Positions 1,281 to 47,021 of a DNA stretch of 64,000 nucleotides are shown one piece after another. This DNA is from Patescibacteria group bacterium. GTDB lineage: Bacteria; Patescibacteriota; Patescibacteriia; UBA2196. Below the pieces are notes generated by a model. It did not search any database, was not told where the DNA came from, and saw nothing but the letters and a program-made list of their open reading frames with translations. The translations under genes were made by a program, and so were the position numbers. Location: positions 129,112 to 193,111 of the forward strand of contig DAIUDD010000002.1 of the NCBI GenBank assembly GCA_036845805.1, given 5' to 3'. Each line of letters starts with the position of its first letter. Position 1 is the first letter of the stretch.

Positions 1281-1410
1281 AAATTATGAATTATGGTTTT
1301 CTGTCCTCTCCTTTTCAGGGAGGGGACTTAAGCCCAAAGGGCTAAGGGGGTGGTTAATAAATCGCCGATAAGCGTTGTCATCCCGTGCCACGACACGGGA
1401 TCCAGAAAAA

Positions 1411-4411: not shown

Positions 4412-4575
4412 AAGATCAAAATTATTCTATCACAAATTTGAAATAAAGCAAGAAAAAATATTATCGCCTATTGGCTATCTTGTTAACCGCCCCCTCCGCT
4501 CCACTCTCCACAAGGGAGGTGAAGCGAGAGGCCCCGCCTTGAAAAGGCGGGGAGTTTTAAAATTCCCTTAATTTC

Positions 4576-6039
4576 TTAGTTTCTAATTTCTAATTTCTCC
4601 CCCACTCCAAACAAAATCTCTTCTCCCCACCATGGGCCGATGAGTTGCGCGCCAATTGGCAAACCGGCTTTGGTTTGGCCACAAGGAATTGACATGGCGG
4701 GCAGACCGGCTAAATTAACTGGCACAGTAAAAATATCTTCCAAATACATGGTCAAAGGATCATTAATTTTTTCACCGATTTTAAAAGCGGGCGTGGGAGT
4801 GGTGGGAGTTAATAAAAGATCAACTTGCTTAAATACTTTTTCAAAATCTTCGCGAATTAAAGCACGCACTTGCTGCGCTTTTTTATAATAGGCATCATAG
4901 TAACCAGCAGACAAAGTATAAGTGCCGAGCATTATTCTTCTTTTAACTTCTTCGCCCAAAAATTCAGCCCTTGTTTTTTTATAATGAGCTAACAAATTTT
5001 CTGAATCTACAGACTGGCCATAACGAATGCCATCAAAACGAGCCAAATTAGCGCTGGTTTCGGCTGGCTGAATTATATAATAAACAGCGAGCGCATATTC
5101 GGTATGCGGCAAACTAATATCAATAATTTGGGCGCCTAATTCTTCAGCTTTTTTGATTGCTTCTTTCACCGATTTCTCTACTTCCGGATCGATTCCAGCA
5201 ACAAAATATTCTTTAGGAATGCCGATTTTAAGATTCTTCAAATTTTCTTTTCCCTTAATTTCTTCATTTCTGGTTGCTTCAGCAACCATCCCGCCGTGGC
5301 GGGATGAAAGCGGAGCTTTCAATTTCTTAATTTCCATGCTAGTTGCATCTTTTTCATCTTTGCCTTTAATGACATCAAAAACAATTTTAGCATCAGCCAC
5401 TGTTTTGGTTAGAGGGCCAACTTGATCCAAAGATGAGGCCATGGCAATCAAACCATAACGGGAAACTGCGCCATAAGTTGGTTTTAGACCAACTACGCCG
5501 CAAAAAGTAGCTGGTTCGCGCACTGAACCGCCAGTATCAGTGCCGAGCGCATAAACAGCTAAATCAGCAGCCACGGCGGCGGCGGAACCACCAGAAGACC
5601 CGCCAGGCACGCGCTCTAAGTCATGGGGGTTTTTTACCAAGCCAAAACCAGAATTTTCATTAGAGCCGCCCATGGCAAATTCATCACAATTATTTTTACC
5701 TAAAATCACCGCGTCGGCGTTTTTTATTTTGGCGACGGCCATGGCGTCGTATGGAGCAAAGTAATTAGCTAAAATTTTGGAAGCGGCAGTGGTTTTGATG
5801 CCTTCAGTCATTAAAACATCTTTCACGCTCATTGGGATGCCAGCCAATAAAGAAATTTCAGCACCATTTTTAATTTTTTCATCAACAACAGCGGCTTGAG
5901 CTAAAGCTTCATCTTTAGTCACGGTAATAAAAGCATTAAGTTCCGGGTTTTTGTTTTCAAGACGCGCTAAATATTCGCGGGTTAATTCGACCGCAGAGAA
6001 TTTTTTATTAATTAATTTTTCATGAAGTTCTTGGATCAT
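4576..6039 (-). CDS. gatA: Glutamyl-tRNA(Gln) amidotransferase subunit A
   Basis: Amidase signature 'GGSSGGSAAAVAA' plus 'GTDTGGSVREPA'; 487 aa; immediately downstream of gatC. Confidence 0.9.
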   Translation of the reverse strand: MIQELHEKLINKKFSAVELTREYLARLENKNPELNAFITVTKDEALAQAAVVDEKIKNGAEISLLAGIPMSVKDVLMTEGIKTTAASKILANYFAPYDAMAVAKIKNADAVILGKNNCDEFAMGGSNENSGFGLVKNPHDLERVPGGSSGGSAAAVAADLAVYALGTDTGGSVREPATFCGVVGLKPTYGAVSRYGLIAMASSLDQVGPLTKTVADAKIVFDVIKGKDEKDATSMEIKKLKAPLSSRHGGMVAEATRNEEIKGKENLKNLKIGIPKEYFVAGIDPEVEKSVKEAIKKAEELGAQIIDISLPHTEYALAVYYIIQPAETSANLARFDGIRYGQSVDSENLLAHYKKTRAEFLGEEVKRRIMLGTYTLSAGYYDAYYKKAQQVRALIREDFEKVFKQVDLLLTPTTPTPAFKIGEKINDPLTMYLEDIFTVPVNLAGLPAMSIPCGQTKAGLPIGAQLIGPWWGEEILFGVGEKLEIRN

Positions 6040-6149
6040 AATTTTATGTCATGCCGTCCCGCGTTCGCGGGATCGGCATCTCTTTATTTCAAAATAATCT
6101 TAGGTTGAGAGATCCTGAAATAAATTCAGGATGACAAAATAAATTAAAA

Positions 6150-6488
6150 CTAAAACACTGACCTGACTTTCACTTGCCCCTTCTCTACTTCTGGCGCCAT
6201 ATCAATTAATTCCCCAAATTTCTCCTGCCTGCCATCGCCTGACGGCGAAGCCAATGGCGGGCAGGCTACTTCTTTATTTCTTAATTTCTCCTCATCTTCC
6301 CGCCAAACATTGGTCAAATCAATCGTGCCGCCATCAGCGGTAGGCACGTTTTGTGTATCAACCTCTTTTAATTTATTCATATAATCTAAAATGCGATCAA
6401 GCTGGGCTTGATATTTTTCTACTTCATCATTAGTTAAACTGATTTTAGCTAAATCAGCTATATGTTCGACATCACTTTTGGTAAGCAT
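6150..6488 (-). CDS. gatC: Asp/Glu-tRNA amidotransferase subunit C
   Basis: 112 aa; N-terminus 'LTKSDVEHIADLAKISLTNDEVEKYQAQLDRILDYMNKL' matches GatC; sits upstream of gatA. Confidence 0.8.
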   Translation of the reverse strand: MLTKSDVEHIADLAKISLTNDEVEKYQAQLDRILDYMNKLKEVDTQNVPTADGGTIDLTNVWREDEEKLRNKEVACPPLASPSGDGRQEKFGELIDMAPEVEKGQVKVRSVF

Positions 6489-6531
6489 AAAAATTAAAAT
6501 TATGTCTCTATTTTAGCATAAATTTAATTTT

Positions 6532-6559
6532 TGACAAATTATAATTTTTAGTTTATAAT
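6532..6559 (+). promoter_or_regulatory. Consensus sigma70-like promoter (TTGACA-N16-TATAAT) driving a short non-coding transcript
   Basis: Exact TTGACA at 6532-6537 and exact TATAAT at 6554-6559. Confidence 0.5.
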
Positions 6560-6566
6560 CTATTTG

Positions 6567-6706
6567 GTTCGTTCGCGAGATTACATTAAGCCCTGATAAG
6601 ATAAAAAGTGCTGGAAAACGTGTGCCAAATCAAAGCCACTCCTCTTTGATTTTGGCTATCCCCGCGTTTTCTTACGGTTGCTTATCAGGGCTTTTTTATT
6701 TTTTAC
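6567..6706 (+). ncRNA. Candidate small structured RNA (unclassified), about 130 nt, ending in an intrinsic terminator
   Basis: Closing 12-bp helix AGCCCTGATAAG (6590-6601) / CTTATCAGGGCT (6681-6692) followed by TTTTTTATTTTTT. Nested helices inside (CCAAATCAAAG/CTTTGATTTTGG; GGAAAACG/CGTTTTC). No ORF. Confidence 0.3.
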
Positions 6707-6798
6707 ACTTGACTTTTAAATTTAAAATATTAAAATCAGATTAAACATCAAAATTTAAAATTAAAAAAATTCTGCTAAGCCAAAGCGAGGAGGTAAAA

Positions 6799-7128
6799 AT
6801 GCAGAAGAAAAAATACAAAAATTATCCAACATGCACATGGTTTGTGCTGATTGTACATTGGACAAAAAAACAGATACAAATTTTTTATTCAAAGCGAGAA
6901 CAGGCTATAGATGAAAAAATTAGCAATTTACAAGAATCCATTCCTGATTTACCAGAGAATGAAAGAGCACGACCAATTGATGGCACAAATATGCCGAGCG
7001 CTCACAAATATAAAATGCCTTTTGCTGGATCAAAACGTGGCCCAACTCAGATAAACATTAAAAAAAGTTTCCACACAATATTGCCACATTTAAAAGGAGT
7101 AAAAATCAAATTCACCAAATTAGAATAG
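6799..7128 (+). CDS. Hypothetical Lys-rich protein (109 aa)
   Basis: Strong SD 'GAGGAGGTAAAA' before the ATG; TTGACT-N16-TAAAAT promoter at 6709-6736; hairpin terminator at 7133-7170. No family recognised. Confidence 0.4.
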   Translation: MQKKKYKNYPTCTWFVLIVHWTKKQIQIFYSKREQAIDEKISNLQESIPDLPENERARPIDGTNMPSAHKYKMPFAGSKRGPTQINIKKSFHTILPHLKGVKIKFTKLE

Positions 7129-7132
7129 AATT

Positions 7133-7170
7133 AAAAATCCTCCGTTTGAAGCGGAGGATTTTATTTTACT
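7133..7170. terminator. Bidirectional rho-independent terminator (AATCCTCCG-TTTGA-AGCGGAGGATT + T-run)
   Basis: 9-bp GC-rich stem flanked by T/A runs; lies between convergent genes. Confidence 0.6.
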
Positions 7171-7197
7171 CATCATTTATATTTACTGCCGAATTAT

Positions 7198-8835
7198 CTA
7201 ATTATTGTCGCTTGTCTCTTGTTGCTTGTTGCTAATTATTAAATATTTCTGCGCTTCTTTTTTGTTTTTAATTTTACCCAATAATTGCGCTTCGCGAAGC
7301 TTTTCTTTAAGTTCACCGACTCTTTTTCCTGACGAGATTTTAAGCAGGTGCATAATCTCAGTGCCATCAATCAGAGGTTTGGGCAGAGCATTTAATCTTT
7401 GCTTTTCTTTTAACAACGCTCTCATACTTTTAATTCTTTTCAAAAGCGCGCCAATTAAATCAAATTCTAATTTGCCAGTTTGGGGAATAGTGGCCAAAGA
7501 ATCAAGATAAGCTAATTTGATTAAATTTAAACCTGAATAATTTTCGGAAAAAAAATATTTTTCAATAGTGGTTGGCCGAAATTCCGAAGGATGGCCATGA
7601 ATTAACATCATGTGTTTTCGAACCAACCAAGAAACATTGTCAGGACTAATGCCATATTTCTCCGGGGCAGAAAAAGTTAATCGTTCACAAATATTCTTGG
7701 CCAAATCAGCGCCGACGTTGTCATGTTCATAAAATCTAATGCGTTCAACCTTGTCTTTGGCTGGCGTTTCAATGGTATAGGGTTTGCCGAGGTCGTGAAA
7801 AATAATTGCAAAGACTAATTCGAGTCTTTGTTTAATAAAATCTTTTCCTGGTTGCTTGTCGCTTATTACTAATAACTTTTCCACTTTCTTCTCAAATATT
7901 CTAAATTGCGGACTATTTATTTTATTAAGTGCTAATTTTGTATGCTGCCAAACATCGCCTTCAGAATGAAAATTTTTTGGCTGGGGGCATTTTTTCATTT
8001 TTAAAATTTCCGGCATTAAAATTTTAAAAATTCCCAGCTGATCGCACAAATCAAGGGCGGAGACGGGCTGATAATAAAAAGCACGCAATAATTCTTTGGC
8101 AATGGTTTCCCGTGGTGCAATCCAGTCCCCTTTTTTATTTTTATCATTAAGGCGCGGGGTTAATTTTTTAATCGCGATAAAAGTTTTTTTCTCAATTTTA
8201 AAATTCAACTGGCACGAAAGGCGCACGGCACGCAAAATTCTGGAATAATCTTCCCCAAATCTTTCGGCTGGCTTACCAACCGCTCGGATAGTTTTATTTT
8301 TCAGGTCATCAAGACCACAAAAAGGGTCAATTATTTTATCTGTCATCCTCGAGAAATCGAGGATCCCATCTTTATTAGCAATCAACACCGCCACAGCATT
8401 AATGGTAAAATCTCTTCTTAACAAATCTTCTTTCAGCGCTAATTTTTTATCAAATTTAACTTTAAAATCTTTATAACCGCCGGTGTTAAAAGAAAATTCT
8501 GTGCGCGGCAGGGCAATATCAAGCGGTTCAAAATTATTATCATTAATAAATTTCTTGGGCTTAAATTTCAAAACGCCAAAATTCCGACCAAGTTTTTCCA
8601 CCCAGCCAAGACGGCCTAAAAATTCTTCTAACTTTTTCATGGGGACATGACGAACCACAAAATCAAAATCCTTATTGTCTTTGACACCAAGCAAAGCATC
8701 GCGGACCGCGCCACCAACTAAATAAACTTCGGCCTGGGGAAATTCTTTAACTAACTTCTTTGACCAATCTAAAACCGCGCCCTTTTCCAGGGTTTGCAGA
8801 AATTTATTTAAATTGGACTCATGAGTTTTATTCAT
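7198..8835 (-). CDS. cca: CCA-adding tRNA nucleotidyltransferase / poly(A) polymerase family with HD domain
   Basis: Pol-beta NTase motif 'LVGGAVRDALLGVKDNKDFDFVV', 'RDFTINA', and C-terminal HD region ('IFHDLGKP'). Start set at MNKTHES (8835); the longer ORF-track start reads through a palindromic repeat. Confidence 0.8.
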   Translation of the reverse strand: MNKTHESNLNKFLQTLEKGAVLDWSKKLVKEFPQAEVYLVGGAVRDALLGVKDNKDFDFVVRHVPMKKLEEFLGRLGWVEKLGRNFGVLKFKPKKFINDNNFEPLDIALPRTEFSFNTGGYKDFKVKFDKKLALKEDLLRRDFTINAVAVLIANKDGILDFSRMTDKIIDPFCGLDDLKNKTIRAVGKPAERFGEDYSRILRAVRLSCQLNFKIEKKTFIAIKKLTPRLNDKNKKGDWIAPRETIAKELLRAFYYQPVSALDLCDQLGIFKILMPEILKMKKCPQPKNFHSEGDVWQHTKLALNKINSPQFRIFEKKVEKLLVISDKQPGKDFIKQRLELVFAIIFHDLGKPYTIETPAKDKVERIRFYEHDNVGADLAKNICERLTFSAPEKYGISPDNVSWLVRKHMMLIHGHPSEFRPTTIEKYFFSENYSGLNLIKLAYLDSLATIPQTGKLEFDLIGALLKRIKSMRALLKEKQRLNALPKPLIDGTEIMHLLKISSGKRVGELKEKLREAQLLGKIKNKKEAQKYLIISNKQQETSDNN

Positions 8836-9073
8836 GCTCTGTTTTATTTTGTCGTCCCGAACTCCCGCCCGCCTCGCAAGCGAGAGCGTTGCGGGCAGGT
8901 GTTTCAGGATCTCTATAATAAAAAAATTATTCTTTGTAAAAAGATGCTGAAATAAATTCAGCATGACAAAAAACATTACTATTATAATAAATTCATTTTA
9001 CCTCTAAAAATCAATTTTTTCAAGCAAACAAAAAATTACCATCTCTGATAATTTTTTGTTTTATAATTTAAAA

Positions 9074-9586: not shown

Positions 9587-9628
9587 AAATATAAAAAACA
9601 AATTTTATATTAAAAAATATTTTTCAAT

Positions 9629-9672
9629 TGCCTGGGGGCAGAACCCCGATGGACATCGGGGCGCAAGGATAC
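9629..9672 (-). pseudogene. Degenerate 3' fragment of tRNA-Phe (duplicate of anticodon-stem-to-3'-end region, T-stem replaced by a CCCCGATG..CATCGGGG hairpin)
   Basis: 27-nt identical repeat 'atatttttcaattgcctgggggcagaa' at 9611-9637 and 9697-9723; reverse complement reads ...ATCCTTGCG[CCCCGATGTCCATCGGGG]TTCTGCCCCCAGGCA. Confidence 0.5.
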
Positions 9673-9710
9673 ATTCCACAACGGGTTTTGATATTAAAAT
9701 ATTTTTCAAT

Positions 9711-9782
9711 TGCCTGGGGGCAGAATCGGACTGCCGACGCAAGGATTTTCAGTCCTTCGCTCTACCACTGAGCTACCCAGGC
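9711..9782 (-). tRNA. tRNA-Phe (GAA)
   Basis: GCCTGGG-TA-GCTC..GAGC-AAGGA-CTGAAAA-TCCTT-..-GGCAG-TCCGATT-CTGCC-CCCAGGC-A. Anticodon GAA. Confidence 0.8.
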
Positions 9783-9789
9783 ATTAATT

Positions 9790-9830
9790 TGGGCATGGAT
9801 GGATTTGAACCATCGACATTCACCTTATAC
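9790..9830 (-). pseudogene. tRNA 3'-half fragment (Ile-like; anticodon loop to acceptor 3' strand CATGCCCA)
   Basis: Reverse complement TATAAGGTGAATGTCGATGGTTCAAATCCATCCATGCCCA parallels the 3' half of the adjacent intact tRNA-Ile. Confidence 0.45.
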
Positions 9831-9876
9831 TAAATATAATTACTGCGTTCGCAAAAAATATAAATGTCAAGACAAT

Positions 9877-9952
9877 TGGTGGGCACGGGTGGATTTGAAC
9901 CACCGACATCCACCTTATAAGGGTGGCGCTCTAACCGCTGAGCTACGTGCCC
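9877..9952 (-). tRNA. tRNA-Ile (TAT), CCA encoded
   Basis: GGGCACG-TA-GCTC..GAGC-G-CCACC-CTTATAA-GGTGG-..-GGTGG-TTCAAAT-CCACC-CGTGCCC-A-CCA. Anticodon read as UAU. Confidence 0.6.
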
Positions 9953-9990
9953 AGTGGTTTTAACATTTACATTTTATTGCTCTCTGGTAA

Positions 9991-10074
9991 TTATAAGGGT
10001 GGCGCTCTAACCCGCCCGCCTCGCAAGCGAGAGCGTTGCGGGCAGGCCGCTCGACTACATGCCCTTTATTATAA
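9991..10074 (-). pseudogene. tRNA 5'-half fragment (acceptor GGGCATG + D-arm + anticodon stem/loop) with a 35-nt GC-rich palindromic element inserted in the D-loop
   Basis: Reverse complement GGGCATGTAGTCGAGCGG[CCTGCCCGCAACGCTCTCGCTTGCGAGGCGGGCGG]GTTAGAGCGCCACCCTTATAA. The 5' acceptor GGGCATG is exactly complementary to the 3' fragment at 9790-9830 (CATGCCC). Confidence 0.45.
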
Positions 10075-16670: not shown

Positions 16671-17777
16671 TTAATTTAAAATCGCCGTTAAATATTTTTC
16701 ACCAGTATAATCCACAAAAATTTTATTAATTTGTTCCCCCAATTCTTTTTGTGATTGTTCATCAACTAATAAATTTTTAATCTGGGCCACCAATTTTTCG
16801 CTTGTTAATTCTTTTTGTGATAAATAAAGAGCGGATTTTTTCTCTGCAAAATACTTGGCATTTTCCTCTTGGTGCGAATCGGGAATCGGAATAATAATAG
16901 TTGGTTTTTTAAAATAGGCCAGTTCGGTTAAAGTGGACATGCCAGCACGAGAAATGACCAGGGTTGCCTTAGAATAAACCACGGCCAGCTGATCTGCATT
17001 TAAAAATGTAAATTGCTGATAATTTTCTCTGGCATTTTGGCGCTGGATACCTGCCTTGCCGGCAGGCAGGCTTTGACACTTGTTTTTACCAGTCAGGTGA
17101 ATGATATTACAAAACTTAGTCAATTTCTCTAATGACTGCCAAACTAATTCATTAAGGAACAAAGCACCAGTGCCACCGCCAAGAACGAGAACTATTGGTA
17201 AATTATTATTAAAATGAACAAACATTTTTTCTCTTAATTTCTCTATTTCTTTATTTCTTAATTTCTCTCTAACTGGATTACCAACTAAAACAGCTTTTTC
17301 TTTTTTAAAATCATCCAAAGATTTTTCTAAGGCCACGGTTATTTTTTTGGCAAACGGAGCCATTAATTTATTAGCCAGGCCCACCCGCACATCTTGCTGA
17401 TGCACAAAAATTGGCACTCTTAAAAACCAGCCAGCCCACGCCACAGGCACAGCCACAAAAGAGCCGGCAGTTAAAATTAAATCTGGCTTAAATTTTTTAA
17501 TAATAAAAAAAGCTTGCCAAAAGCCAACTTTAATTTTAAAAAAATCAAATAAATTTTTAAAAGAAAAATAACGGCGAAATTTACCGCCGACAATGGATTT
17601 AAAATTAATGCCTTCACTCTCAACCACTTGGCGCTCTGGGCCAAACCTGGTGCCTAACCATAAGGCTTCGTCACTCGGCACTTTGGCACTTTGACGCTTT
17701 GACACTAATTTCTGATGGGTGGCAATAAGCGGACTAACCGAACCCAAAGTGCCGCCACCGCTATAAAGAATTTTCAT
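16671..17777 (-). CDS. murG: UDP-GlcNAc:MurNAc-(pentapeptide)-PP-undecaprenol GlcNAc transferase
   Basis: GT28 features: N-terminal 'ILYSGGGTLGSVSPL', C-terminal 'VLVLGGGTGALFLNELV'; 368 aa. Confidence 0.8.
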   Translation of the reverse strand: MKILYSGGGTLGSVSPLIATHQKLVSKRQSAKVPSDEALWLGTRFGPERQVVESEGINFKSIVGGKFRRYFSFKNLFDFFKIKVGFWQAFFIIKKFKPDLILTAGSFVAVPVAWAGWFLRVPIFVHQQDVRVGLANKLMAPFAKKITVALEKSLDDFKKEKAVLVGNPVREKLRNKEIEKLREKMFVHFNNNLPIVLVLGGGTGALFLNELVWQSLEKLTKFCNIIHLTGKNKCQSLPAGKAGIQRQNARENYQQFTFLNADQLAVVYSKATLVISRAGMSTLTELAYFKKPTIIIPIPDSHQEENAKYFAEKKSALYLSQKELTSEKLVAQIKNLLVDEQSQKELGEQINKIFVDYTGEKYLTAILN

Positions 17778-17893: not shown

Positions 17894-18610
17894 TTAAAGA
17901 TGGTGCTTTTGTTTAATTATTTTTTTAGCTAATTCATATTCTTTAACTTTTTTTAACCAAGTCAGGCGATAAAAAAATTTAGGCAGCCAAGAACTCATGG
18001 TACCATGACTTTTAGATTGCCACAAGAGTTCGGGTAGAAAAATTCCTGTTTCATGGTGGGCTAAAAGAGCCAGCCATAAATCCCAATCTTGAAATTTTTT
18101 TAATGATTCATCCCAAGGGATATTGGGAAAAGATAATTTTTCCAAAGCCCGGCGGCGAATTAAAGACATGGTGGAAATGTAATTATTTTGTTTTAATTTT
18201 TCTTGGTCAAAGGGAAAAAGTTTAAAAGTTTTCCAACCAAATTTAAAAGATGAGTATGAGTAGGCTTTATCTAGGTTATTTTCTAAAACATTAAGCATTT
18301 TTTCTAAAGCATTATTTTTTAAAAAAATTACATCGCTATCACAGAAAAAAATATACTCTCCAGTTGATTTTTGCCAGCCAAAATTTCTGGCTTTGGCTGC
18401 ACCAGAATGATCAATAAAATATTTCTGTAATTTTAATCCTTTAATTTCTAAATTTCTCAATTTCTCAATTTCTTTACTCCCATCATCAACCACGATTATC
18501 TCTATTTCATCTTTATACAATTCAAAAATTGTCTGCGGTTTTAAATTGTTTAGCAGTTTGGTTAAATTTTTTTCATTATTATAAACAGGAATAATAATAG
18601 ATAACAACAT
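17894..18610 (-). CDS. Glycosyltransferase family 2
   Basis: 'LSIIIPVYNNEKNL...IEIIVVDDGS' with DxD 'CDSD'. ATG start at 18610 preferred over the ORF-track TTG start at 18628. Confidence 0.75.
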   Translation of the reverse strand: MLLSIIIPVYNNEKNLTKLLNNLKPQTIFELYKDEIEIIVVDDGSKEIEKLRNLEIKGLKLQKYFIDHSGAAKARNFGWQKSTGEYIFFCDSDVIFLKNNALEKMLNVLENNLDKAYSYSSFKFGWKTFKLFPFDQEKLKQNNYISTMSLIRRRALEKLSFPNIPWDESLKKFQDWDLWLALLAHHETGIFLPELLWQSKSHGTMSSWLPKFFYRLTWLKKVKEYELAKKIIKQKHHL

Positions 18611-18656
18611 AAAAATAGCGCTTGACAATTTTAGAAAGATAAATTAAAATAAAAAG

Positions 18657-18912
18657 CACCAAAAAAATAAAGTTGGGAAGGAGGCATCATTGGTTTTGGT
18701 AAACCAAATTTACCGCGGAAATGATGTTGGTTCAAAAGAGACTTTTGTGCGAGTGGTTAGTCACCACGAGCATAAAAACGAAGTCCAGTATCATTTCTGT
18801 GATCAAAACGGCAGAGCTAAAACCGGGCTCGTAAGCCGGACGACGGAGAGTTTTTTATCTCTTTTTAGACTGGCTTAAAAACACCACAGACGATGAACGC
18901 ATGTTTGTCGTC
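18657..18912 (+). ncRNA. Candidate structured non-coding RNA (about 250 nt, unclassified) with its own promoter and intrinsic terminator
   Basis: TTGACA (18623-18628)-N16-TAAAAT on the plus strand between two minus-strand genes. Nested helices (GGCATCATTGG..GGTAAA/TTTACC..CCAACATCATTTCC; CCGG-GCTCGTAAG-CCGG; GGAGAG-TTTTTTAT-CTCTTT). Terminator GACGA..TCGTC+TTTTTTATT at about 18878-18912. The in-frame 62-aa TTG ORF looks non-protein-like. Confidence 0.3.
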
Positions 18913-18916
18913 TTTT

Positions 18917-20131
18917 TTATTTTTCTAAAACTTTTATTATATTGTCAACTAAATCATCAATATTTTCTGGATTAACAAAATTTGCTTTAAAATAATTCTG
19001 TAAAGATTCTTTAATGCCGCCAACATCCGAGGTAATAATTGGTAAATTAAATTCTTGGGCCTCTAAAAAAACCACGCCAAAACTTTCAGTATCTGTTGAA
19101 GGCGAGGTTCCGGAACCTCGCCTTCGAGGAGTCATAATAAACGCGTCGGCCAACTCATAATAATTAGGCAAATCTTGGTGTGGCACAGAACCAGCAAAAA
19201 TTACCCTATCGACACTTTTTATTTGAAAAGTGCCAGCCACATCATCCCCTCCTTTCGAAGGAGGGGCCTCTCGGCGATTAGCCGGAGGGGGAGGTAATAA
19301 TTCGTTGGCAATTTTAATTAATCTGTTTTTATCTGGGCCATCGCCAATAATTAGATAAACCAAATCTGGAATTTTCTGCCAAACTTTTGGCAAAGATTCA
19401 AGCACCCGATCAATACCTTTAGATTCTACCAAGCGCGCCACAGTTAATAAAACTTTTTTGTTAGCTAAATTATATTTTTCTTTTAATTCTGCTACTTTCT
19501 GTGGATCAACCATTTCTTTTTTTAATGTATTAACTGGATAAACAATTCTTATTTTTTCCGGCTGAACTTTAAAATCATTGATTAAAATATTTTTAGTAAA
19601 TTCAGTGTTGGCCTCAACAAATTCGGCGTCCTTCAAGATTTTCTTAGCTAACAAAAATTTGCGTTTATTCTTTTTGGCACGAAGCAAATCATTACCGTGG
19701 CAGGTGACAAAGTAAATTATGTCATTCCCGCCCCGCAAAATGCGGGGGGAATCCCCTTGAACTACGAGATCCTCACTTTTGTGAGGATGACAATGAGAAA
19801 ATAAATTCATTATTTTACAGATTAACCAAACCGCTGTGCCCACTGGCAAAATTTGCCCTGCCCATAAACGTTTAATTTTTTCTTTTTTTGCTATTTTATA
19901 AATGTGCCAAACTAAAGGCAGCCAGTGGGGCCAGATAAAACGCCAAAAAAAATGCTTATAAATTAATTTAAAATCATAAATCTTAAATCGTAAATCATAA
20001 ATCTCTGATTTATTCATCAAAACAACCACTGTCTTACCGGTATCAACCACCTGTCTGACTCTTTGCCTATAATAATTGGCAATGCCACCGATTAGGGGCG
20101 GAAAATCCATGGTAATTAAAAGCGTTTTCAT
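18917..20131 (-). CDS. Glycosyltransferase family 4 (GT-B) carrying multiple in-frame palindromic-repeat insertions
   Basis: C-terminal GT4 core 'VIFAGSVPHQDLPNYYELADAFIMTP...ESFGVVFLEAQEFNLPIITSDVGGIKE'. Segments 'PPPPANRREAPPSKGGD', 'RRRGSGTSPSTDT', 'CHPHKSEDL' and 'GDSPRILRGG' are encoded by hairpin repeats (see findings). Confidence 0.75.
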   Translation of the reverse strand: MKTLLITMDFPPLIGGIANYYRQRVRQVVDTGKTVVVLMNKSEIYDLRFKIYDFKLIYKHFFWRFIWPHWLPLVWHIYKIAKKEKIKRLWAGQILPVGTAVWLICKIMNLFSHCHPHKSEDLVVQGDSPRILRGGNDIIYFVTCHGNDLLRAKKNKRKFLLAKKILKDAEFVEANTEFTKNILINDFKVQPEKIRIVYPVNTLKKEMVDPQKVAELKEKYNLANKKVLLTVARLVESKGIDRVLESLPKVWQKIPDLVYLIIGDGPDKNRLIKIANELLPPPPANRREAPPSKGGDDVAGTFQIKSVDRVIFAGSVPHQDLPNYYELADAFIMTPRRRGSGTSPSTDTESFGVVFLEAQEFNLPIITSDVGGIKESLQNYFKANFVNPENIDDLVDNIIKVLEK

Positions 20132-21672: not shown

Positions 21673-21871
21673 ACAAATTTTATCCCCTCCTTACTAAGGA
21701 GGGGCCTCTCGCCACAAAGTGGCGGAGGGGGGGTTAAGAAAAACAAATTACTTTTAGTTTAGCAAAAAAATGTCAATCTGACAAAATATAAAAATCTCAT
21801 ATTTTCTACACTTGCCTCGAAAATGTAAAACTTTGTTTTACGTTTCACTCGCTCACTTGAAAATAAAAAGC

Positions 21872-26329: not shown

Positions 26330-27286
26330 TTAAACAGCTGCGGCGGCTAAAAATTTTTTAAATTTTATTGGTTGAGATAATTTAAACTCCTGCCAATCAT
26401 GATTTAAATCATAAAAACCAAGTTTGGCCGCATAAAGAAAAATAAAATCAGGTGCTGATTTTTTATTTTGATGACGAAGGTCTTTGGTTTGATAGAGTTT
26501 ATCGCCGACAATGGAATGGCCAATACTTTTTAAGTGCACGCGAATTTGATGAGTCCGGCCAGTAAGAAGTACTATTTTTAATAAAGTATAAGATTTAAAT
26601 CTTTTAACAACTTCAAATTCCGTAATGGCTTCCTTGCCGTTCTCTACTTCACCAAAATGGGCGGTCATAAGCCCAGTCCTAGCCGACCGACTAATAACGC
26701 GCTCAATCCGACCGGAATCTAAATTAACGGAGCCGTATACCAAAGCCAAATACTCTTTTTTAATCTGACGAGTTTTAAATTGCTCTTTTAAAGAATTAAA
26801 CATTTTTTGCGTTTTGGCAATAACCATCAAACCAGAAACATCTCGATCAAGGCGATGCACAATACCCGGGCGAATTTTACCATCTTTATTTTCCCGATCA
26901 TAAACTTTCTTAATAGCTGGATATTTTCTAATAAGCCAGTCGACTAGCGTATTATTTTCTTGGGCAGCAGTAGGATGAACCAAAATTCCAGCTGGTTTAT
27001 TAATAACTAAGTAATCATTGTTTTCGGCTATAATTTTGATGTTTATCTTTTTATCATTGGTCTTATTGCTCTCTAATTTCTTTATTTCTAATTTCTTTAT
27101 TTCTATGATGTCTTTTTCTTTTAAAAAATAATGCGGTGTAACTTTTTTTTGATTAACAAAAACAAAACCGGCTTTAACCAATTCTTGAAGCTTGCTTCGG
27201 GATAAAGCCGGAAATTTTTGTGATAAAAATTTATCCAAGCGTTCGTTAACTTGGAAATCAGTAACAATAAATTTTTGGCCAGCCAT
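26330..27286 (-). CDS. RluA-family 23S rRNA pseudouridine synthase (RluD-like) with S4 domain
   Basis: N-terminal S4-like 'ERLDKFLSQKF', catalytic 'HRLDRDVSGLMVIAKT', 'GRTHQIRVHL'. Confidence 0.85.
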   Translation of the reverse strand: MAGQKFIVTDFQVNERLDKFLSQKFPALSRSKLQELVKAGFVFVNQKKVTPHYFLKEKDIIEIKKLEIKKLESNKTNDKKINIKIIAENNDYLVINKPAGILVHPTAAQENNTLVDWLIRKYPAIKKVYDRENKDGKIRPGIVHRLDRDVSGLMVIAKTQKMFNSLKEQFKTRQIKKEYLALVYGSVNLDSGRIERVISRSARTGLMTAHFGEVENGKEAITEFEVVKRFKSYTLLKIVLLTGRTHQIRVHLKSIGHSIVGDKLYQTKDLRHQNKKSAPDFIFLYAAKLGFYDLNHDWQEFKLSQPIKFKKFLAAAAV

Positions 27287-30417: not shown

Positions 30418-32604
30418 TTATTTAATTATCGGCCAACGCTCAACCATTAAAAGGTCACTTTTTTTTACTGGCAAAGATTGATAAATGGTTTCGGTAATAA
30501 AAGGTATAAAAGGATGTAAAAGCTTTAAACTGGTAATTAAAACATAAAATAAAATTTCTTGCGCTGCTTTTTTACTTTTTTCGTCGGCACCGTTTAGGCG
30601 ATCCTTAACGGCTTCAATATAAACATCACAGAAATCATGCCAAAAAAATTGATAAGCATCTTGAGCCGCTTCATGAAACATATAATTATCTAGATTTCGC
30701 GTGACGCTTTTAGTAGCTTCATTTAAAGCTGCTAAAATTGTTTGATCAGCGGGGTCAGAAGCGACAGGAGTGGCAAGGGTGGAAGAAAAATCGTTGCCCA
30801 GGTTGTTTAAAACAAATTTACTGGCGTTCCAAATTTTATTGGCAAATCTTTTAAAACCGATAATTTTTTCTTCATAAAATTTGGAATCATTACCGGGTGT
30901 GACGCCAAAAATTAAAGACAAGCGCAGGGCGTCAGTGCCGTGTTTGTCACACACTTCTCTGGGATCAATGCCAATGCCAAGAGATTTAGAAAATTTTTGG
31001 CCACTCTTATTGCGGAGCATGCCATGAATATAGACTTCTTTAAAAGGAATTTCCTCCAAAGCATAAGTGGACATTAAAATCATCCGCGCCATCCAGAAAA
31101 ATAATATTTCATAACCCATCTGCATCCAACTGGTGGGGTGAAATTTTTTCAAATCCTCTGTTTTCTCCGGCCAGCCAAGCGTGGAAAATGTCCACAGCCC
31201 TGATGAAAACCAAGTGTCCAAAGTATCAGGATCTTGCTCCCAATCCCCACCTTTTGGTGGTTTGTCACCAACATAAATTTCTTGTTTATGATAGTAAACC
31301 GGAATCCGGTGTCCAAACCAAATCTGGCGGGAAATGCACCAGTCGCGCAGATTATCAATCCAGTTGAAATAACTTTTTTCAAACCGCTCGGGCGTGATTT
31401 TTATTTTTTGTTTTGGATCATTATTCAAGCCGGTGGTAAAAGCTTCTTTCATTAAATCTTTTAAACTTTTATTTTTGCCGGGAATTTTTTTATTAACACT
31501 CACAAACCACTGGAGCATGGGAATGGCTTCCACCACGTCGCCAAAACGGTCAGAAGTGCCGACATTTTGCGGAATGTCTTCTTCTTTGATAAATAAATTA
31601 TTTTCTTTAAGCCAGTCAATAAATTTTTCTCTGGCTGCCAAAACTTTTAAGCCCGCATAATTTTTGCCAGCGGCTTCAGTCATCCGGCCGAAATTATCAA
31701 TCACTGGAATTAATTCCAAGTTATGTTTTTCTTTTAATTCAAAATCAATTTGGCTATGGGCTGGCGTCACACCCAAAGCGCCGGTGCCATATTCAGGATC
31801 AACTATTTCATCGCCAATAATTTTGATGGCTAGGGGTTTGGCGGCGCCAACATCAACTTGAAAAGTTTGGCCAATATATTTTTTATAACGTTCGTCGTTT
31901 GGATTAACCGCAACCGCGGTGTCACCAAGCTTTGTTTCTGGCCTGGTGGTGGCAATCGTGATGGGAAAATCAGCACTATATTTAAAAGTATAAAGCTTGC
32001 CGGATTGTTCCTGATAAACCAATTCATCATCACTGCAAGTGGACTGGCCCTTGACTGACCAATTCACCACCCGGTAGCCGCGATAAATTAAGCCATCATT
32101 ATACATTTTAATGAACATTTCATTAACCGCCTTTTCTCGCTTATCATCAAAAGTATAAGCCAAGCGGCTCCAGTCGCAAGAGGTGCCCATTTTTTTAATT
32201 TGTTCCAAAATTGTTTTTTGTGATTTTTCCGCATAATCTTTAATCAGCGTCAATAGTTTTTCGCGGCCGAGTTCAGCCCGCGGATTTTTATATTGGCCAG
32301 ATTTAACCAATTCTTTTTCCACTTTGGCTTGGGTGGCGACCGCCGCATGATCAGTGCCGGGAATAATGACGGCCCGCTTGCCTTGCATTCTTTGATATCT
32401 GATTTCAATATCCATGAGCGCGTTTTCCAAAGCATGGCCCAAATGCAAAACACCGGTCACATTCACCGGCGGCATGGCCAGGGAAAAAACCGGCGCGTCT
32501 TTCTCGATTGGCAAATTATCAGGATTAAAATAACCAGATTTTTCCCAAAGCTGGTAAATTTTTTCTTCGTGCTCTTTTGAATTATATGGACCTGGAGGCA
32601 GCAT
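30418..32604 (-). CDS. valS: Valine--tRNA ligase (short form, 728 aa, no C-terminal coiled coil)
   Basis: Class I motifs 'PPVNVTGVLHLGHAL' (HIGH) and 'KFSKS' (KMSKS); overall ValRS-like N-terminus 'QLWEKSGYFNP'. Confidence 0.8.
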   Translation of the reverse strand: MLPPGPYNSKEHEEKIYQLWEKSGYFNPDNLPIEKDAPVFSLAMPPVNVTGVLHLGHALENALMDIEIRYQRMQGKRAVIIPGTDHAAVATQAKVEKELVKSGQYKNPRAELGREKLLTLIKDYAEKSQKTILEQIKKMGTSCDWSRLAYTFDDKREKAVNEMFIKMYNDGLIYRGYRVVNWSVKGQSTCSDDELVYQEQSGKLYTFKYSADFPITIATTRPETKLGDTAVAVNPNDERYKKYIGQTFQVDVGAAKPLAIKIIGDEIVDPEYGTGALGVTPAHSQIDFELKEKHNLELIPVIDNFGRMTEAAGKNYAGLKVLAAREKFIDWLKENNLFIKEEDIPQNVGTSDRFGDVVEAIPMLQWFVSVNKKIPGKNKSLKDLMKEAFTTGLNNDPKQKIKITPERFEKSYFNWIDNLRDWCISRQIWFGHRIPVYYHKQEIYVGDKPPKGGDWEQDPDTLDTWFSSGLWTFSTLGWPEKTEDLKKFHPTSWMQMGYEILFFWMARMILMSTYALEEIPFKEVYIHGMLRNKSGQKFSKSLGIGIDPREVCDKHGTDALRLSLIFGVTPGNDSKFYEEKIIGFKRFANKIWNASKFVLNNLGNDFSSTLATPVASDPADQTILAALNEATKSVTRNLDNYMFHEAAQDAYQFFWHDFCDVYIEAVKDRLNGADEKSKKAAQEILFYVLITSLKLLHPFIPFITETIYQSLPVKKSDLLMVERWPIIK

Positions 32605-39603: not shown

Positions 39604-39957
39604 TTATTCTTCATCAATATCGTCTGTTTTTTCTTCTTCTTCAATTTTTATTAAATCTTCTTCTTCGCCAACCACAGCGGTAGTTTCTTCAATTTTTTTC
39701 AGTTTTAATTTTTTTACTAAATTTTCATAATTGGTCGGGTTATCTTTACTTAAAAATTTAAGCAAGCGGCGGCGTTGGCCAATCTTACGCAAAAGACCGC
39801 GCCGAGAAGAAAAATCTTTCTTGTGAATTTTTAAATGTTCAGTTAATTCACGAATTTCTTCTGACAAAATTGCAATTTGCACCTCAGAAGAACCAGAATC
39901 GCTTTCATGAACACGGAATTTTTTGATAATCGCTTCTTTTCTTTTTTTATCTAACAT
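39604..39957 (-). CDS. rpsO: 30S ribosomal protein S15 with acidic C-terminal tail
   Basis: 'GSSEVQIAILSEEIRELTEHLKIHKKDFSSRRGLLRKIGQRRRLLKFL' is the S15 signature. Unusual ~30-aa E/D-rich extension. Start uncertain (39957 or 40002). Confidence 0.75.
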   Translation of the reverse strand: MLDKKRKEAIIKKFRVHESDSGSSEVQIAILSEEIRELTEHLKIHKKDFSSRRGLLRKIGQRRRLLKFLSKDNPTNYENLVKKLKLKKIEETTAVVGEEEDLIKIEEEEKTDDIDEE

Positions 39958-40200
39958 AAATTTATAGCCACGATAATCCGAGTTATAAGCCAAGTTAGAC
40001 AAAATGTTAGCTAAGAACCCAGAAAATCGTCATTAATTGATGTTTTGTATTTTAGCATAAAGTTAAAAATCTTGCAAGTTTGGCAAAAATAAGGTAAAGT
40101 GAGAATAACGATTTTAATCATGATGGCTTGCTTGCAACACCAATAAATCGGCTGGCGCGATGGGCAGAAAATAGTAATCTAAACATCAATTTTAAAAAAT

Positions 40201-42246: not shown

Positions 42247-42304
42247 TTATTTTTTCCCCTCTCCTTTATAAGGAGAGGGTGGGGAGAGGTATTAAAAACC
42301 GTGC

Positions 42305-42748
42305 ATGTTTACGCAACTTTACAATACGGTAGAACGGAAAAATATCAGAAGAGTGTTAAGGAAATCAATGCCTAAAGGTGAAAAACTTTTGTGGTCTAAA
42401 CTTAAAGCTAATCAATTAGGTTATAAATTTAAAAGACAATATAGTATCGGGGCATATATATTAGATTTTTATGCTCCCGCTATTAAACTATGCATTGAAA
42501 TTGACGGTCGAACTCATGATTATGATGAACAAACTAAATATGATGATAAAAGACAAAAATATTTGGAATCAATAGGTATAATTGTTAAAAGATTTAATAG
42601 TAAAGAAATTTTTGATAATATTAATTCAGTAGTAGAACAAATATGGTTCATCGGGGAAGATATTAAAAATAAAAACATAAAAACACCTCTCCCCAACCCT
42701 CCCCTTATTAAGGGAAGGGAGCCGACCTTCATAAGACAAATATGTTAA
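42305..42748 (+). CDS. DUF559 (Vsr/restriction-endonuclease-like fold) endonuclease-domain protein, flanked by GC-rich inverted repeats
   Basis: 'LWSKLKANQLGYKFKRQYSIGAYILDFYAPAIKLCIEIDGRTHDYDEQTKYDDKRQKYLESIGIIVKRF' is typical of DUF559. The last ~20 codons read through the right-hand repeat. Confidence 0.65.
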   Translation: MFTQLYNTVERKNIRRVLRKSMPKGEKLLWSKLKANQLGYKFKRQYSIGAYILDFYAPAIKLCIEIDGRTHDYDEQTKYDDKRQKYLESIGIIVKRFNSKEIFDNINSVVEQIWFIGEDIKNKNIKTPLPNPPLIKGREPTFIRQIC

Positions 42749-43578
42749 ATAACCAAGTTTTTCTTGATGGCAAAGCCGAAGCGGAAAAGCTTATTAATTC
42801 ATTAAAGCAACAAATTGCCCAAAAAAAGATGAACTTAAGCTTGGCCGTTATTTTGGTTGGCAATAACCCGGCTTCTAAGGTCTATGTTAATATTAAAGAA
42901 AAAAGAGCTAAAGAATTGGGGGTGGAATTTAAAAAATATATTTTACCAGCTACTGTGAGTGAAAATAAAATTTTAACTTTAATTAATAAATTAAATAATA
43001 ATAAAAAAATAACTGGGATTTTGTTGCAATTACCTTTACCAAAAAAATTTAAGACTAATAAAATAATCCAAGCTATTGATATCAAGAAAGATGTGGATGG
43101 GCTCTGTCCCTCTCTCCTTACGAAGGAGAGGGGTGGGGTGAGGTTATTAATTATTTCACCAACTATTCAAGCAATTTCACACTTAATCAAATTATCAAAA
43201 ATAAGGTTAGCGGGTAAAAAGGCAGTGATTTTATGCCATAGCCAAGAATTTGCTCAATCGTTGAAGCAAGAATTATGTAGACAAAAAATTAGTGTGGACG
43301 TTTTATTGAAACCTCCTATTAAAACTCATAATTCATTATCCGTAATTCATTATTCAATTGTTATTATTGCTTTGGGCAAAAAATATTTTCTTAAATCAAA
43401 AATGATCAAAAAAAATGCGGTTATTATTGATGTGGGTATAAACAGGGTTGATAAAAAAATATTTGGTGATGTTGATCCAAGATGTTTTAAAAAAACAAAA
43501 TACATTTCGCCAGTACCGGGCGGGGTAGGACCTTTAACAGTGGCTTATTTATTTAAAAATTTAATAAAATTAAAATAA
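42742..43578 (+). CDS. folD: Bifunctional methylenetetrahydrofolate dehydrogenase/cyclohydrolase carrying an in-frame palindromic insertion
   Basis: FolD motifs 'ILLQLPLP', 'KDVDG', 'IIDVGINR', 'PVPGGVGPLTVAYL'. The expected 'HPxNxGxL' segment after KDVDG is replaced by 'LCPSLLTKERGGVRL', encoded by a GC-rich hairpin repeat (43101-43145). Confidence 0.75.
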   Translation: MLNNQVFLDGKAEAEKLINSLKQQIAQKKMNLSLAVILVGNNPASKVYVNIKEKRAKELGVEFKKYILPATVSENKILTLINKLNNNKKITGILLQLPLPKKFKTNKIIQAIDIKKDVDGLCPSLLTKERGGVRLLIISPTIQAISHLIKLSKIRLAGKKAVILCHSQEFAQSLKQELCRQKISVDVLLKPPIKTHNSLSVIHYSIVIIALGKKYFLKSKMIKKNAVIIDVGINRVDKKIFGDVDPRCFKKTKYISPVPGGVGPLTVAYLFKNLIKLK

Positions 43579-46434: not shown

Positions 46435-47021
46435 ATTTTTGGTGGAGGTGGCCGGAATTGCACCGGCGTCTAAAATTTTTTATTAAACCATTGCTACAAA
46501 GTTAGTTTGTTTAAGTGATCGACCAATTTTCTAAAACAAACAAAACAAATTGGCTTAAGCCTAATTGTTCTTACTAATTTTAAGCGGCCTTAAAATTAGC
46601 CAGCTTGTATTTTATAACACCTTGGCTGCTTTTACAAGCTTTAAGCAGTAAGATGGCGGTTGGATTTAAGCAACCACATAAGCTGGTTGAAAAGAAAAAG
46701 CGTGAGCTAGTTTAGCCACACCTTCTTTCACCCGGCTAAAAAGATTGGCATTTATTGTGCCGTGAATCAGTTTTAAGAGATGATTCAACTCTCTTTGATA
46801 AGTTTAATAGCTAAATTTTATCAAATTTGAACACCCCCATAATATTAAACTCAAAGTTCAAAATGCCAGCTCTGCGCCGGCATCCCGCATTTTGTGGGTT
46901 GGTTGTCCAAAGAACAACCAAAACTCAAAATTTAAGGTAAAAAGTTAGAATTATTGTAGCTTAAAAAATAAAAGATGTCAAATATAATAAAAAACTTTTA
47001 AAATATCTTATTATATTAAAA

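Follow-up and report, generated by a model that had tools for sequence, protein, structure and literature searches.

In-frame palindromic repeats in a Patescibacteria glycosyltransferase gene and their relationship to dRS3-like hairpins of other bacteria

A glycosyltransferase gene of family GT4, located on a 64,000-nt stretch of contig DAIUDD010000002.1 from a Patescibacteria group bacterium (the whole stretch is hereafter called the window), carries three GC-rich palindromic elements, termed S2, S3 and S4, which leave its reading frame intact (Table 1). This gene has very probably acquired, at loop-encoding positions, three small, non-autonomous, GC-rich palindromic repeats of distinct kinds: a 75-nt doublet similar to the dRS3 repeats of neisserial intergenic mosaic elements (NIMEs), a 54-nt CCCCTCCTT element and a 28-nt palindrome. 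A preliminary description of the sequence had reported in-frame hairpin repeats within this open reading frame (ORF), and this observation holds. On translation, the ORF is open over 404 codons and contains the four peptides quoted; it matches the Pfam families Glycos_transf_1 (3.6e-32), Glyco_trans_1_4 and Glyco_transf_4, and all the quoted palindromes exist and fold far better than shuffled sequences.

Three palindromic elements in the loops of a GT4 enzyme

The three elements differ from the rest of the gene by their base composition (GC content of 0.52-0.64 versus 0.327), in a window which is itself AT-rich (36.5% GC). Folded as single-stranded DNA and compared to dinucleotide shuffles, S2, S3 and S4 have z-scores of -4.7, -4.2 and -6.3, respectively, and none of 200 shuffles equaled them. 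Over the entire window, 16 GC-rich hairpins with a perfect stem of at least 8 bp are present, versus 0.6 in Markov shuffles.

S2 (GC content 0.52, length a multiple of three) reads TTGTCAT-(ATCCTCAC aaaa GTGAGGAT)-CTC...GGGG-(ATTCCCCCCGC atttt GCGGGGCGGGAAT)-GACA. Each half is composed of TTGTCAT, a hairpin and ATC(C/T), the second half being inverted so that the element ends in TGTCAT/ATGACA. With its flanks (19718-19801), S2 codes for residues 111-138, FSHCHPHKSEDLVVQGDSPRILRGGNDI. The preliminary description had counted at least four units in the gene; two of them are real hairpins which turned out to be the halves of this single doublet, bringing the number of elements to three. One of these hairpins, CCCCGC-AAAAT-GCGGGG, had been placed at 19737-19765 and lies in fact at 19731-19747, with outer arms at 19724-19752.

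S3, whose length is also a multiple of three, codes for approximately residues 279-296 (LPPPPANRREAPPSKGGD), at a site where the protein has gained about 28 residues relative to PimB' (3oka). It had been reported at 19255-19305; the element actually starts at 19244, and its first hairpin spans 19246-19266. S3 is 93% identical over 30 nt to positions 21682-21711 (family D18), which belong to an intergenic sister copy. Flanks and first hairpin are common to both copies, while the second stem differs in sequence with its pairing retained. S4 codes for residues 336-345 (RRRGSGTSPS), between the conserved TP and DTESFG segments, for a net gain of 4-5 residues (4 relative to 3oka). The insert-derived peptide stretches of the enzyme include CHPHKSEDLVVQGDSPR and GSGTSPSTDTESFGVVFLEAQEFNLPIITSDVGGIK. 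A fourth site, S1, which was absent from the preliminary description, is occupied by a heptanucleotide array in the very loop where orthologues bear dRS3-like doublets.

The statement that the same repeat families occur between genes elsewhere in the window is correct for the TTGTCAT hairpins of S2, with about 12 units, most of them intergenic, and for the CCCCTCCTT family, with two further copies (Table 1). It does not extend to the S4 palindrome, which has no second copy or relative within the 64-kb window. The 22-nt core of S4 has an exact match in two metagenome contigs, in both of which the full 28 nt are identical. In one of them (L132), the palindrome lies between convergent genes and resembles a bidirectional terminator; in the other (L131), it is in frame within the CCA-adding enzyme of a syntenic relative. 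Here and below, L001-L212 designate the loci or contigs compared, and P0002, P0003 and P0007 orthologue proteins.

Table 1. Repeat elements and host genes. Positions are those of the window unless a locus is given; the last seven rows are Pfam-verified enzymes of other genomes.
Feature	Position	Strand	Description
GT4 glycosyltransferase gene	18917-20131	-	Intact ORF, 404 aa, GT-B fold, PimB'-like
Site S1	19971-20003	.	Heptanucleotide tandem array AAATCAT x4.7 (TRF), in frame, codes for IYDLRFKIYDF
Element S2	19720-19794	.	75-nt inverted doublet of two dRS3-like hairpin units, TGTCAT-hairpin-ATCyC ... GGGGAT-hairpin-ATGACA
S2 unit A	19765-19794	-	TTGTCAT + ATCCTCAC-aaaa-GTGAGGAT + CTC; 20-bp palindrome, dRS3 format, 6-bp arms around N8
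S2 unit C	19720-19757	+	TGTCAT + ATTCCCGCCCCGC-aaaat-GCGGGGGGAAT + CCCC; ATTCCC...GGGAAT arms, longer inner stem
Element S3	19244-19297	.	54 nt, two hairpins: ATCCCCTCCTT-tcg-AAGGAGGGG + CCTCTCGGC-gatta-GCCGGAGGGG + GAGGTAA
S3 sister copy	21682-21735	+	Intergenic, upstream of flippase gene; fold z -5.6
Third S3-family (CCCCTCCTT) copy	1303-1356		
Element S4	19098-19125	.	28 nt, perfect 14+14 palindrome, GAAGGCGAGGTTCC/GGAACCTCGCCTTC
GatA hairpin	5287-5306	.	CATCCCGC-cgtg-GCGGGATG, in frame
GatC hairpin	6212-6274	.	GC-rich, in frame (ACPPLASPSGDGRQE); missing from L131
CCA-enzyme unit	8341-8366	+	Single dRS3-like unit, in frame, antisense to gene, peptide GILDFSRMTD
Intergenic dRS3-like inverted doublet	6047-6136	.	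Between GatA and GatC; fold z -6.2
M16 peptidase			In-frame dRS3-like unit; Deltaproteobacteria
Two P-type ATPases			In-frame dRS3-like units; Magasanikbacteria and Patescibacteria
Methylmalonyl-CoA mutase	L047 3027-3052		In-frame dRS3-like unit; cultured Flavobacterium paronense; DSRLRGNDNSGNDNN, linker before B12 domain
Sua5			In-frame dRS3-like unit; Peregrinibacteria
Another GT4			In-frame dRS3-like doublet between two Rossmann domains; Ignavibacteria metagenome-assembled genome (MAG)
Lgt			In-frame dRS3-like doublet; Kuenenbacteria
ELM1-like protein			In-frame dRS3-like unit; Sulfurovum

An AlphaFold2 model of the GT4 protein, built on 27 orthologues, has a mean predicted local distance difference test score (pLDDT) of 82.7 and is confident outside the loops. 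Using this model, Foldseek retrieved PimB' (3oka) as the best match, along with BshA and MshA, which are all retaining GT-B enzymes of family GT4. The E-x7-E motif of these enzymes is present as ESFGVVFLE, with E349 and E357 invariant in the orthologue alignment, and all family-invariant residues, including the ESFG...E motif, are kept in the protein of the window. The gene is preceded by a Wzx/MurJ-type flippase gene and followed by GT2 and MurG genes. The flippase-GT4-GT2 order is kept around the orthologues, which supports that they are true orthologues within a conserved glycan-synthesis cluster. Named homologues of the protein belong to Kuenenbacteria, Parcubacteria and the 'Patescibacteria group', the nearest orthologue sharing only 55% protein identity. 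The spacer between the GT4 and GT2 genes (18629-18916) showed neither conservation across the orthologous loci nor any Rfam match.

The lengths of the 27 orthologues range from 332 to 422 residues. The protein of the window exceeds the shortest (about 332 residues) by about 72 residues, approximately 65 of which are located at S2, S3 and S4. The shortest syntenic orthologues (332-340 residues) align without any of the three segments, which are lineage-specific insertions, as the preliminary description had proposed. It had also expected them to map to surface loops; in the model, all three inserts fall in loops between secondary-structure elements and correspond to the sole stretches with a pLDDT below 50 (residues 115-129, 292-303 and 340-344).

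Other orthologues bear GC-rich hairpin elements of their own in these three loops and in two additional ones (S1 and S5), giving five sites in this enzyme family. Doublets of the dRS3 type are found at S1 in L003, L005 and L006. At S2, doublets, nested doublets or other elements bounded by TTGTCAT...ATGACAA are present in L001, L002, L003 and L005, and the element is missing from L004 and L006. CCCCTCCTT-type elements occupy S3 in L003 and L006, while S4 and S5 harbor further element families. On a neighbor-joining tree of the core alignment, the presence and content of the inserts are patchy: S2 is empty in P0007 and filled in its sister P0002, whose S2 element differs from that of P0003. Such a pattern indicates that elements turn over at a few permissive sites. 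Elements are nested at S2 in L001, and the window offers a second case at 8846-8913, in the form of a TTGTCAT hairpin whose loop harbors a 36-nt GC element.

A hairpin family shared with Neisseria and many other phyla

The TTGTCAT units were analyzed through an alignment of 12 copies, made up of eight window units and four units of orthologue inserts. In this alignment, 93.8% of the pair cells form standard pairs versus 73% in shuffles, compensatory changes on both sides occur in five of the eight stem pairs, and the covariation score was reached by none of 500 shuffles and in no slid register. The only invariant parts are the stem foot (AT.C/G.AT) and the flank GTCAT. The consensus unit is free of stops in five of the six frames and is read in five frames in different proteins, as VIPAxAGIx, CHSRxGGNx, DSRLRGNDx, WIPAxAGMT and DPRFRGDD, which argues against selection for one particular peptide. 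What is conserved in this unit is the hairpin rather than the peptide.

From all loci, 59 unique doublets were collected, with a median length of 73 nt. They are bounded by TTGTCAT...ATGACAA and by mirrored hairpins, which form terminal inverted repeats. For 49 of the 59, no direct repeat of 2 nt or more abuts the ends, and the repeats flanking the remainder are short. Their lengths are spread evenly modulo three (18, 22 and 19), so that in-frame copies represent a filtered subset and not a built-in property of the element.

dRS3 is a 20-bp repeat, ATTCCC-N8-GGGAAT, which flanks RS spacers of 19-214 bp in NIMEs, organized as dRS3-RS-dRS3 units or arrays (PMC1797815). Filamentous Nf phages integrate at dRS3 by means of a transposase/recombinase which they encode, and dRS3 copies have been proposed as recombinase-binding sites which promote recombination with incoming DNA (PMC1797815). 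In S2, unit C has ATTCCC...GGGAAT arms separated by N17 (19724-19752), and unit A reads ATCCTC-N8-GAGGAT, with two of the six arm bases differing. Exact dRS3 sequences are carried by the inserts of L003, L005 and L006 (ATTCCCGCGAAGGCGGGAAT; ATTCCCGCG(A/C)A(G/A)GCGGGAAT). The family which had been described as AT-rich, TTGTCATCC..GGATCTC, is, by this comparison, most simply viewed as a dRS3 variant. A BLAST search of a doublet against a plasmid collection matched 23-28 places in each of two chromosome-sized Neisseria gonorrhoeae records. The gonococcal copies read ctGTCATTCCCGCGAAGGCGGGAATCtgg...tctGGATTCCCGCCTGCGCGGGAATGACga and have the extended flank GTCAT...ATC in common with the units of the window. 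The dRS3-spacer-dRS3 arrangement is found in the inverted doublets of the GT4 gene, at 6047-6136 and in the 59 unique cases. The intergenic location of dRS3 is not retained here, as copies lie in frame inside ORFs.

A scan with the pattern TTGTCATYCYYRC-N3-6-GYRRGRATC, keeping one genome per species, returned at least 120 loci. Among the matches listed, the motif occurs in at least 15 phyla, most commonly as TTGTCATTCCCGCGAAGGCGGGAATCCAG, with inverted doublets being very frequent. The listed loci include many lineages of the candidate phyla radiation (CPR), Bacteroidota, Ignavibacteria, all classes of Proteobacteria (including Rickettsiaceae/Tisiphia and Coxiellaceae), Chloroflexota, Planctomycetota, Nitrospirae, Omnitrophota, Zixibacteria, Elusimicrobia, Fibrobacter, Cloacimonadota, Poribacteria, Acidobacteria and one Clostridia MAG. 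The Rickettsiaceae and Tisiphia units are on contigs L038, L053 and L091. On viral and prophage contigs of IMG/VR (L133-L212), the motif gave at least 120 matches, with up to six copies on a single contig (L176). In Candidatus Omnitrophus magneticus (L088, 116-500), three direct copies of the unit were observed; the first two are 186 nt apart, share the same downstream flank of about 75 nt and each lie in a doublet, an organization which recalls NIME arrays.

In-frame copies are not restricted to the genome of the window. Among the 149 listed motif matches, 13 are in frames which extend 50 codons or more in either direction without a stop, and eight Pfam-verified enzymes with an in-frame dRS3-like unit (L047, L040, L052, L056, L070, L071, L100 and L008; Table 1) were found in CPR, Bacteroidota, Ignavibacteria, Delta- and Epsilonproteobacteria. 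The in-frame share of about 4 of approximately 30 listed matches in CPR, versus 4-5 of about 115 elsewhere, is suggestive of an enrichment in CPR, with small numbers. In the searchable literature, the coverage of which is incomplete, no report was found of such insertions in Patescibacteria or of dRS3-like repeats outside Neisseria. A broader proposal, which is possible and still rather doubtful, is that the dRS3-type unit (TTGTCAT-hairpin-ATCCAG) represents one family, either ancient or disseminated horizontally, whose range covers at least 15 phyla as well as viral contigs. Such a family would be moved or maintained by a hairpin-recognizing enzyme without target-site duplication and would be a general, hitherto unrecognized source of loop insertions in bacterial proteins, with Patescibacteria being especially permissive, as several families would remodel identical loops of their core enzymes time and again.

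Origin of the inserts and comparison with known repeats

In-frame hairpins were also found in the GatA, GatC and CCA-adding enzyme genes of the window (Table 1), the GatA hairpin being located in a stretch which is about 17 residues longer than in the solved GatA (4wj3). The metagenome contig Ga0116156_10034064 (L131) is syntenic with positions 5511-8814 (CCA-GatC-GatA) at 72-79% nucleotide identity. It contains neither the GatC insert nor the stretch of about 105 nt between GatC and GatA which holds the doublet 6047-6136, the corresponding spacer of L131 being only a few nucleotides long. At 781-802, L131 has an S4-type palindrome in frame at the same loop of the CCA-adding enzyme where the window has a TTGTCAT unit. 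This comparison is the closest approach obtained to filled versus empty sites, with elements gained or lost over about 25% nucleotide divergence; with regard to target-site duplication it is ambiguous, the flanks being AT-rich. From the distribution of the elements and their presence or absence relative to L131, a selfish or mobile nature appears likely.

The elements are DNA-level repeats, each defined by a hairpin with short conserved flanks, scattered in the genome and mostly located between genes. Copies within genes would persist only if the net length added is compatible with the reading frame, translation meets no stop codon and the 5-30 added residues fall in a tolerant loop. The inserts are presumably translated as disordered and possibly neutral loop extensions, with the enzyme staying functional. 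Few tolerant sites and nesting into earlier elements may account for the same loops being hit repeatedly and independently across Patescibacteria lineages.

With regard to movement, we tentatively propose a trans-acting hairpin-recognizing enzyme, of the HUH/Y1 or IS110/Piv type, rather than a DDE transposase. Such a non-DDE route is favored by the 49 of 59 doublets without end repeats and by the even lengths modulo three. The association of a hairpin with an adjacent conserved motif, the inverted doublets and the absence of duplications recall the REP/REPIN-RAYT systems considered below and the ends of IS200/IS605 insertion sequences, while the Neisseria precedent points to IS110/Piv-type recombinases acting at dRS3.

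Several observations weigh against an acquisition of mobile repeats. No insertion event has been seen as such, the nearest GT4 orthologue being only 55% identical and offering no clean empty site. No transposase, RAYT or IS110 gene was found with Pfam among the approximately 57 ORFs of the 64-kb window. At S2, the doublets present in the window, in L001 and in L005 are alike in architecture and stem type; a single ancient insertion retained over a long period could explain this, in which case selection acting on the hairpin or on the peptide, and not neutrality, would be implied. [quoted passage not shown] Finally, not all cases are simple insertions. In FolD (42742-43578, + strand), a CCCTCTCC hairpin at 43105-43145 codes for CPSLLTKERGGVRL at the place of the conserved HPxNxGxL...PCTP stretch, with PCTP reading ISPT. 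In an alignment with the solved FolD (3p2o), the length is unchanged, and this hairpin was consequently dropped as an insertion. Either the repeat has replaced a conserved segment at equal length or FolD is impaired.

In a first alternative, the hairpins would be selected cis-acting RNA or DNA structures, such as RNase III or RNase Y processing sites, translational pause sites at domain boundaries or recombinase-binding sites, retained for this function and not as tolerated passengers. The covariation and perfect pairing of the stems across copies are in line with this view, as are an S2 doublet type common to three orthologues only about 55% identical in protein, the presence of RNase III and RNase Y genes in the window and the recombinase-binding role proposed for neisserial dRS3 (PMC1797815). 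It is nevertheless improbable, since many orthologues, including the close P0007, work without inserts at these sites, the content of a given site varies by lineage, the elements are found in either orientation, in spacers as well as in genes with no relationship to each other, and no Rfam family matches them.

Other roles for the hairpins were considered and discarded. A structured-RNA family was rejected, as an Rfam scan of the window at gathering thresholds and a permissive scan of the gene returned no ribozyme, riboswitch, intron or repeat RNA at the elements. Intrinsic terminators were rejected for the in-gene hairpins, none of which is followed by a T-tract on the coding strand, the terminator-like setting of the S4 palindrome in L132 notwithstanding. 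An uptake sequence is not supported, TGTCAT/ATGACA occurring 32 times in the window versus about 43 estimated from base composition. The TTGTCAT unit is slightly similar to type I-E CRISPR repeats; its copies form inverted doublets and not direct arrays, and this assignment was dismissed.

A second alternative is that the inserts are recombination scars or junctions, as for NIME arrays, with hairpins as crossover points and mosaic boundaries. Points in its favor are the similarity of one family to dRS3, a repeat for which a role in promoting recombination with incoming DNA has been suggested, the lack of target-site duplications, the occupation of identical sites by different elements in related genomes and the frequency of the motif on viral or prophage contigs. 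However, an informal look at the neighbor-joining tree of the core revealed no obvious mosaic signal, the core flanks of each insert align normally with the orthologues and no recombinase gene was detected nearby by Pfam among the window ORFs, which makes a recombination origin quite improbable.

In a third alternative, the inserts would be removed before or during protein synthesis, by intron-like excision or by translational bypass as in T4 gene 60, and no peptide would be added. The strong local structure of the elements could be invoked, together with the unusual introns for which the rRNA and tRNA genes of Patescibacteria are known (PMC13011429). This possibility is very slight: every in-gene copy examined keeps the frame and is free of stops, a needless property in a removed segment, group I and II introns are far larger than these elements, and no ribozyme or intron family was detected by Rfam. 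Lastly, an artefact or a decaying gene gathering junk is of negligible probability, even though repeats may give rise to chimeric MAG sequences. Three assemblies obtained independently from different samples (ERZ761564, ERZ27257431 and SRR5007219) show 100% identity over 3.3-3.5 kb spanning the GT4 gene, which rules out an assembly artefact, and the ORF is intact with all family-invariant residues and a fold model confident outside the loops.

The acquisition of small palindromic repeats by the GT4 gene has precedents. The preliminary description had likened it to Rickettsia palindromic elements (RPEs), whose families of about 150 bp insert in-frame palindromes into genes (Ogata et al. 2000, 2002, as summarized in PMC10969869). 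The likeness extends to the insertion of palindromes in frame into unrelated housekeeping genes, here those of GT4, GatA, GatC and the CCA-adding enzyme, to peptide segments which appear compatible with the fold, to the presence of the families in non-coding DNA as well, and to a reduced, AT-rich host genome. RPEs are usually recognized by a length of about 100-150 bp and a conserved peptide of about 30-50 residues. The present elements, of 75, 54 and 28 nt (doublets elsewhere reaching 145 nt), are set apart by this described size; in addition, one of their families is pan-bacterial, and several different element families recur, from lineage to lineage, at identical loops of a single protein family. 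The comparison with RPEs thus holds for in-frame palindromes which add peptides and fails for membership, the elements of 28-75 nt being distinct from those of about 150 bp (PMC10969869); the likeness is best regarded as an analogy of behavior.

dRS3/NIMEs provide what appears to be the best family assignment for the TTGTCAT units, yet one which fails the defining intergenic feature. The 20-bp palindrome format, the GTCAT...ATC flank of gonococcal copies, the pairing as inverted doublets and the GC peaks on an AT-richer background are common to both. In contrast, NIMEs are intergenic, Neisseria-specific arrays, while the present copies are in ORFs of Patescibacteria and other phyla, and units of the window depart from dRS3 by variant arms (ATCCTC/GAGGAT) or by an inner stem of greater length. 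The spacers are short here (19-40 nt).

Repetitive extragenic palindromic (REP) elements and their doublets, REPINs, are reportedly mobilized by RAYT (Y1/HUH) transposases, in work attributed to Nunvar in 2010 and to Bertels and Rainey in 2011. Similarly to the present elements, they consist of a short hairpin beside a conserved 5' motif, are commonly inverted doublets, lack target-site duplications and are non-autonomous. However, the conserved flank is (T)TGTCAT instead of GTAG, the two hairpins of a doublet differ and would form a multi-hairpin junction instead of one long hairpin, no RAYT gene is present among the window ORFs, and REPs are extragenic.

Bacterial MITEs, among which ERIC, QMITE1 of Coxiella and Anabaena MITEs, are known to fuse in frame with genes (PMC10969869). 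They are likewise small and non-autonomous, with terminal inverted symmetry and occasional in-frame fusions. Unlike the 49 of 59 doublets, MITEs normally have target-site duplications, as well as a parent insertion sequence with matching ends, and the present elements are at or under their lower size limit. Coding palindromes or GC-rich palindromic clusters have also been described in organelle genes, in Nematomorpha mitochondria (PMC6649704) and in Volvox (PMC2670323). These are hairpins in coding sequences of AT-rich genomes with the ORF kept, but they are organellar and unrelated in sequence, and those of Nematomorpha reach 284 bp.

Although the concept is known, the density of the insertions (three elements and a heptamer array in a 1.2-kb gene), the recurrent hot spots and the cross-phylum hairpin family are striking. 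Part of the longer or odder proteins of Patescibacteria may be repeat-derived loop filler, recognizable from DNA, and repeat-derived peptides such as VIPAKAGIQ, DSRLRGND, CHPHxSED and PPxKGG should be masked in alignments, phylogenies and family models. Whereas dRS3 has so far been regarded as a peculiarity of Neisseria, it is found here across phyla, with flanks and doublet architecture unchanged, a distribution which makes the question of the moving or maintaining factor testable by phylogenetic profiling. Independent, recurrent insertions at five loops of one enzyme family offer a natural map of insertion-tolerant sites, and such loop insertions may be a source of new surface loops.

Other repeats and genes of the window

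AT-rich tandem arrays are a second, unrelated kind of repeat which also lies within coding sequence. Arrays with an 8-nt period (AATTTCTC and variants) are located at 18443-18473, 17237-17268, 27072-27105, 6270-6289, 4569-4598 and 62304-62346, in GT2, MurG, RluD, GatC, the end of GatA and spacers. Several of them adjoin GC hairpin inserts, and they code for EIRN/LRNKE-like peptides. In PolA, a perfect 7-nt array, AAATCCG x4.4, is in frame at 58461-58491.

Two tRNA regions contain duplicated segments. An intact tRNA-Ile(tat) gene (9877-9952, minus strand; region 9790-10065) lies between two pieces of another tRNA-Ile-like gene: the 5' half (about 10062-9993) ends in the anticodon loop, where the 3' half (about 9833-9793) begins, and their acceptor stems are complementary (GGGCATG/CATGCCC). 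The D-loop of the 5' fragment holds the 36-nt GC element CCCGCCCGCCTCGCAAGCGAGAGCGTTGCGGGCAGG, an identical copy of which (8864-8899) is nested in a TTGTCAT hairpin. At 9614-9725, a 30-nt exact duplicate, AAAATATTTTTCAATTGCCTGGGGGCAGAA (9614 and 9696), corresponds to the 3' end of tRNA-Phe and its flank. The extra copy is preceded by the hairpin CCCCGATGGACATCGGGG and resembles an att-type remnant of an integrated element. A tmRNA gene was detected by Rfam at 46440-46838 on the minus strand (105 bits), in addition to the 11 ARAGORN calls, which are all tRNAs.

Between SHMT and FolD, and overlapping the start of the latter, an ORF at 42305-42748 encodes a DUF559/Vsr-like endonuclease (PF04480, 1.3e-27), the sole nuclease-like anomaly among the approximately 57 ORFs examined with Pfam, which may be a selfish nuclease gene; it is preceded by a CCCTCTCCTT-tat-AAGGAGAGGG hairpin (42257-42279). 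Ribosomal protein S15 (39604-40002) has 132 residues, compared to an 81-position Pfam domain (residues 22-102), and in a class I tRNA synthetase (30418-32604), residues 15-443 span profile positions 1-254 only. Both proteins may hold further lineage-specific insertions.

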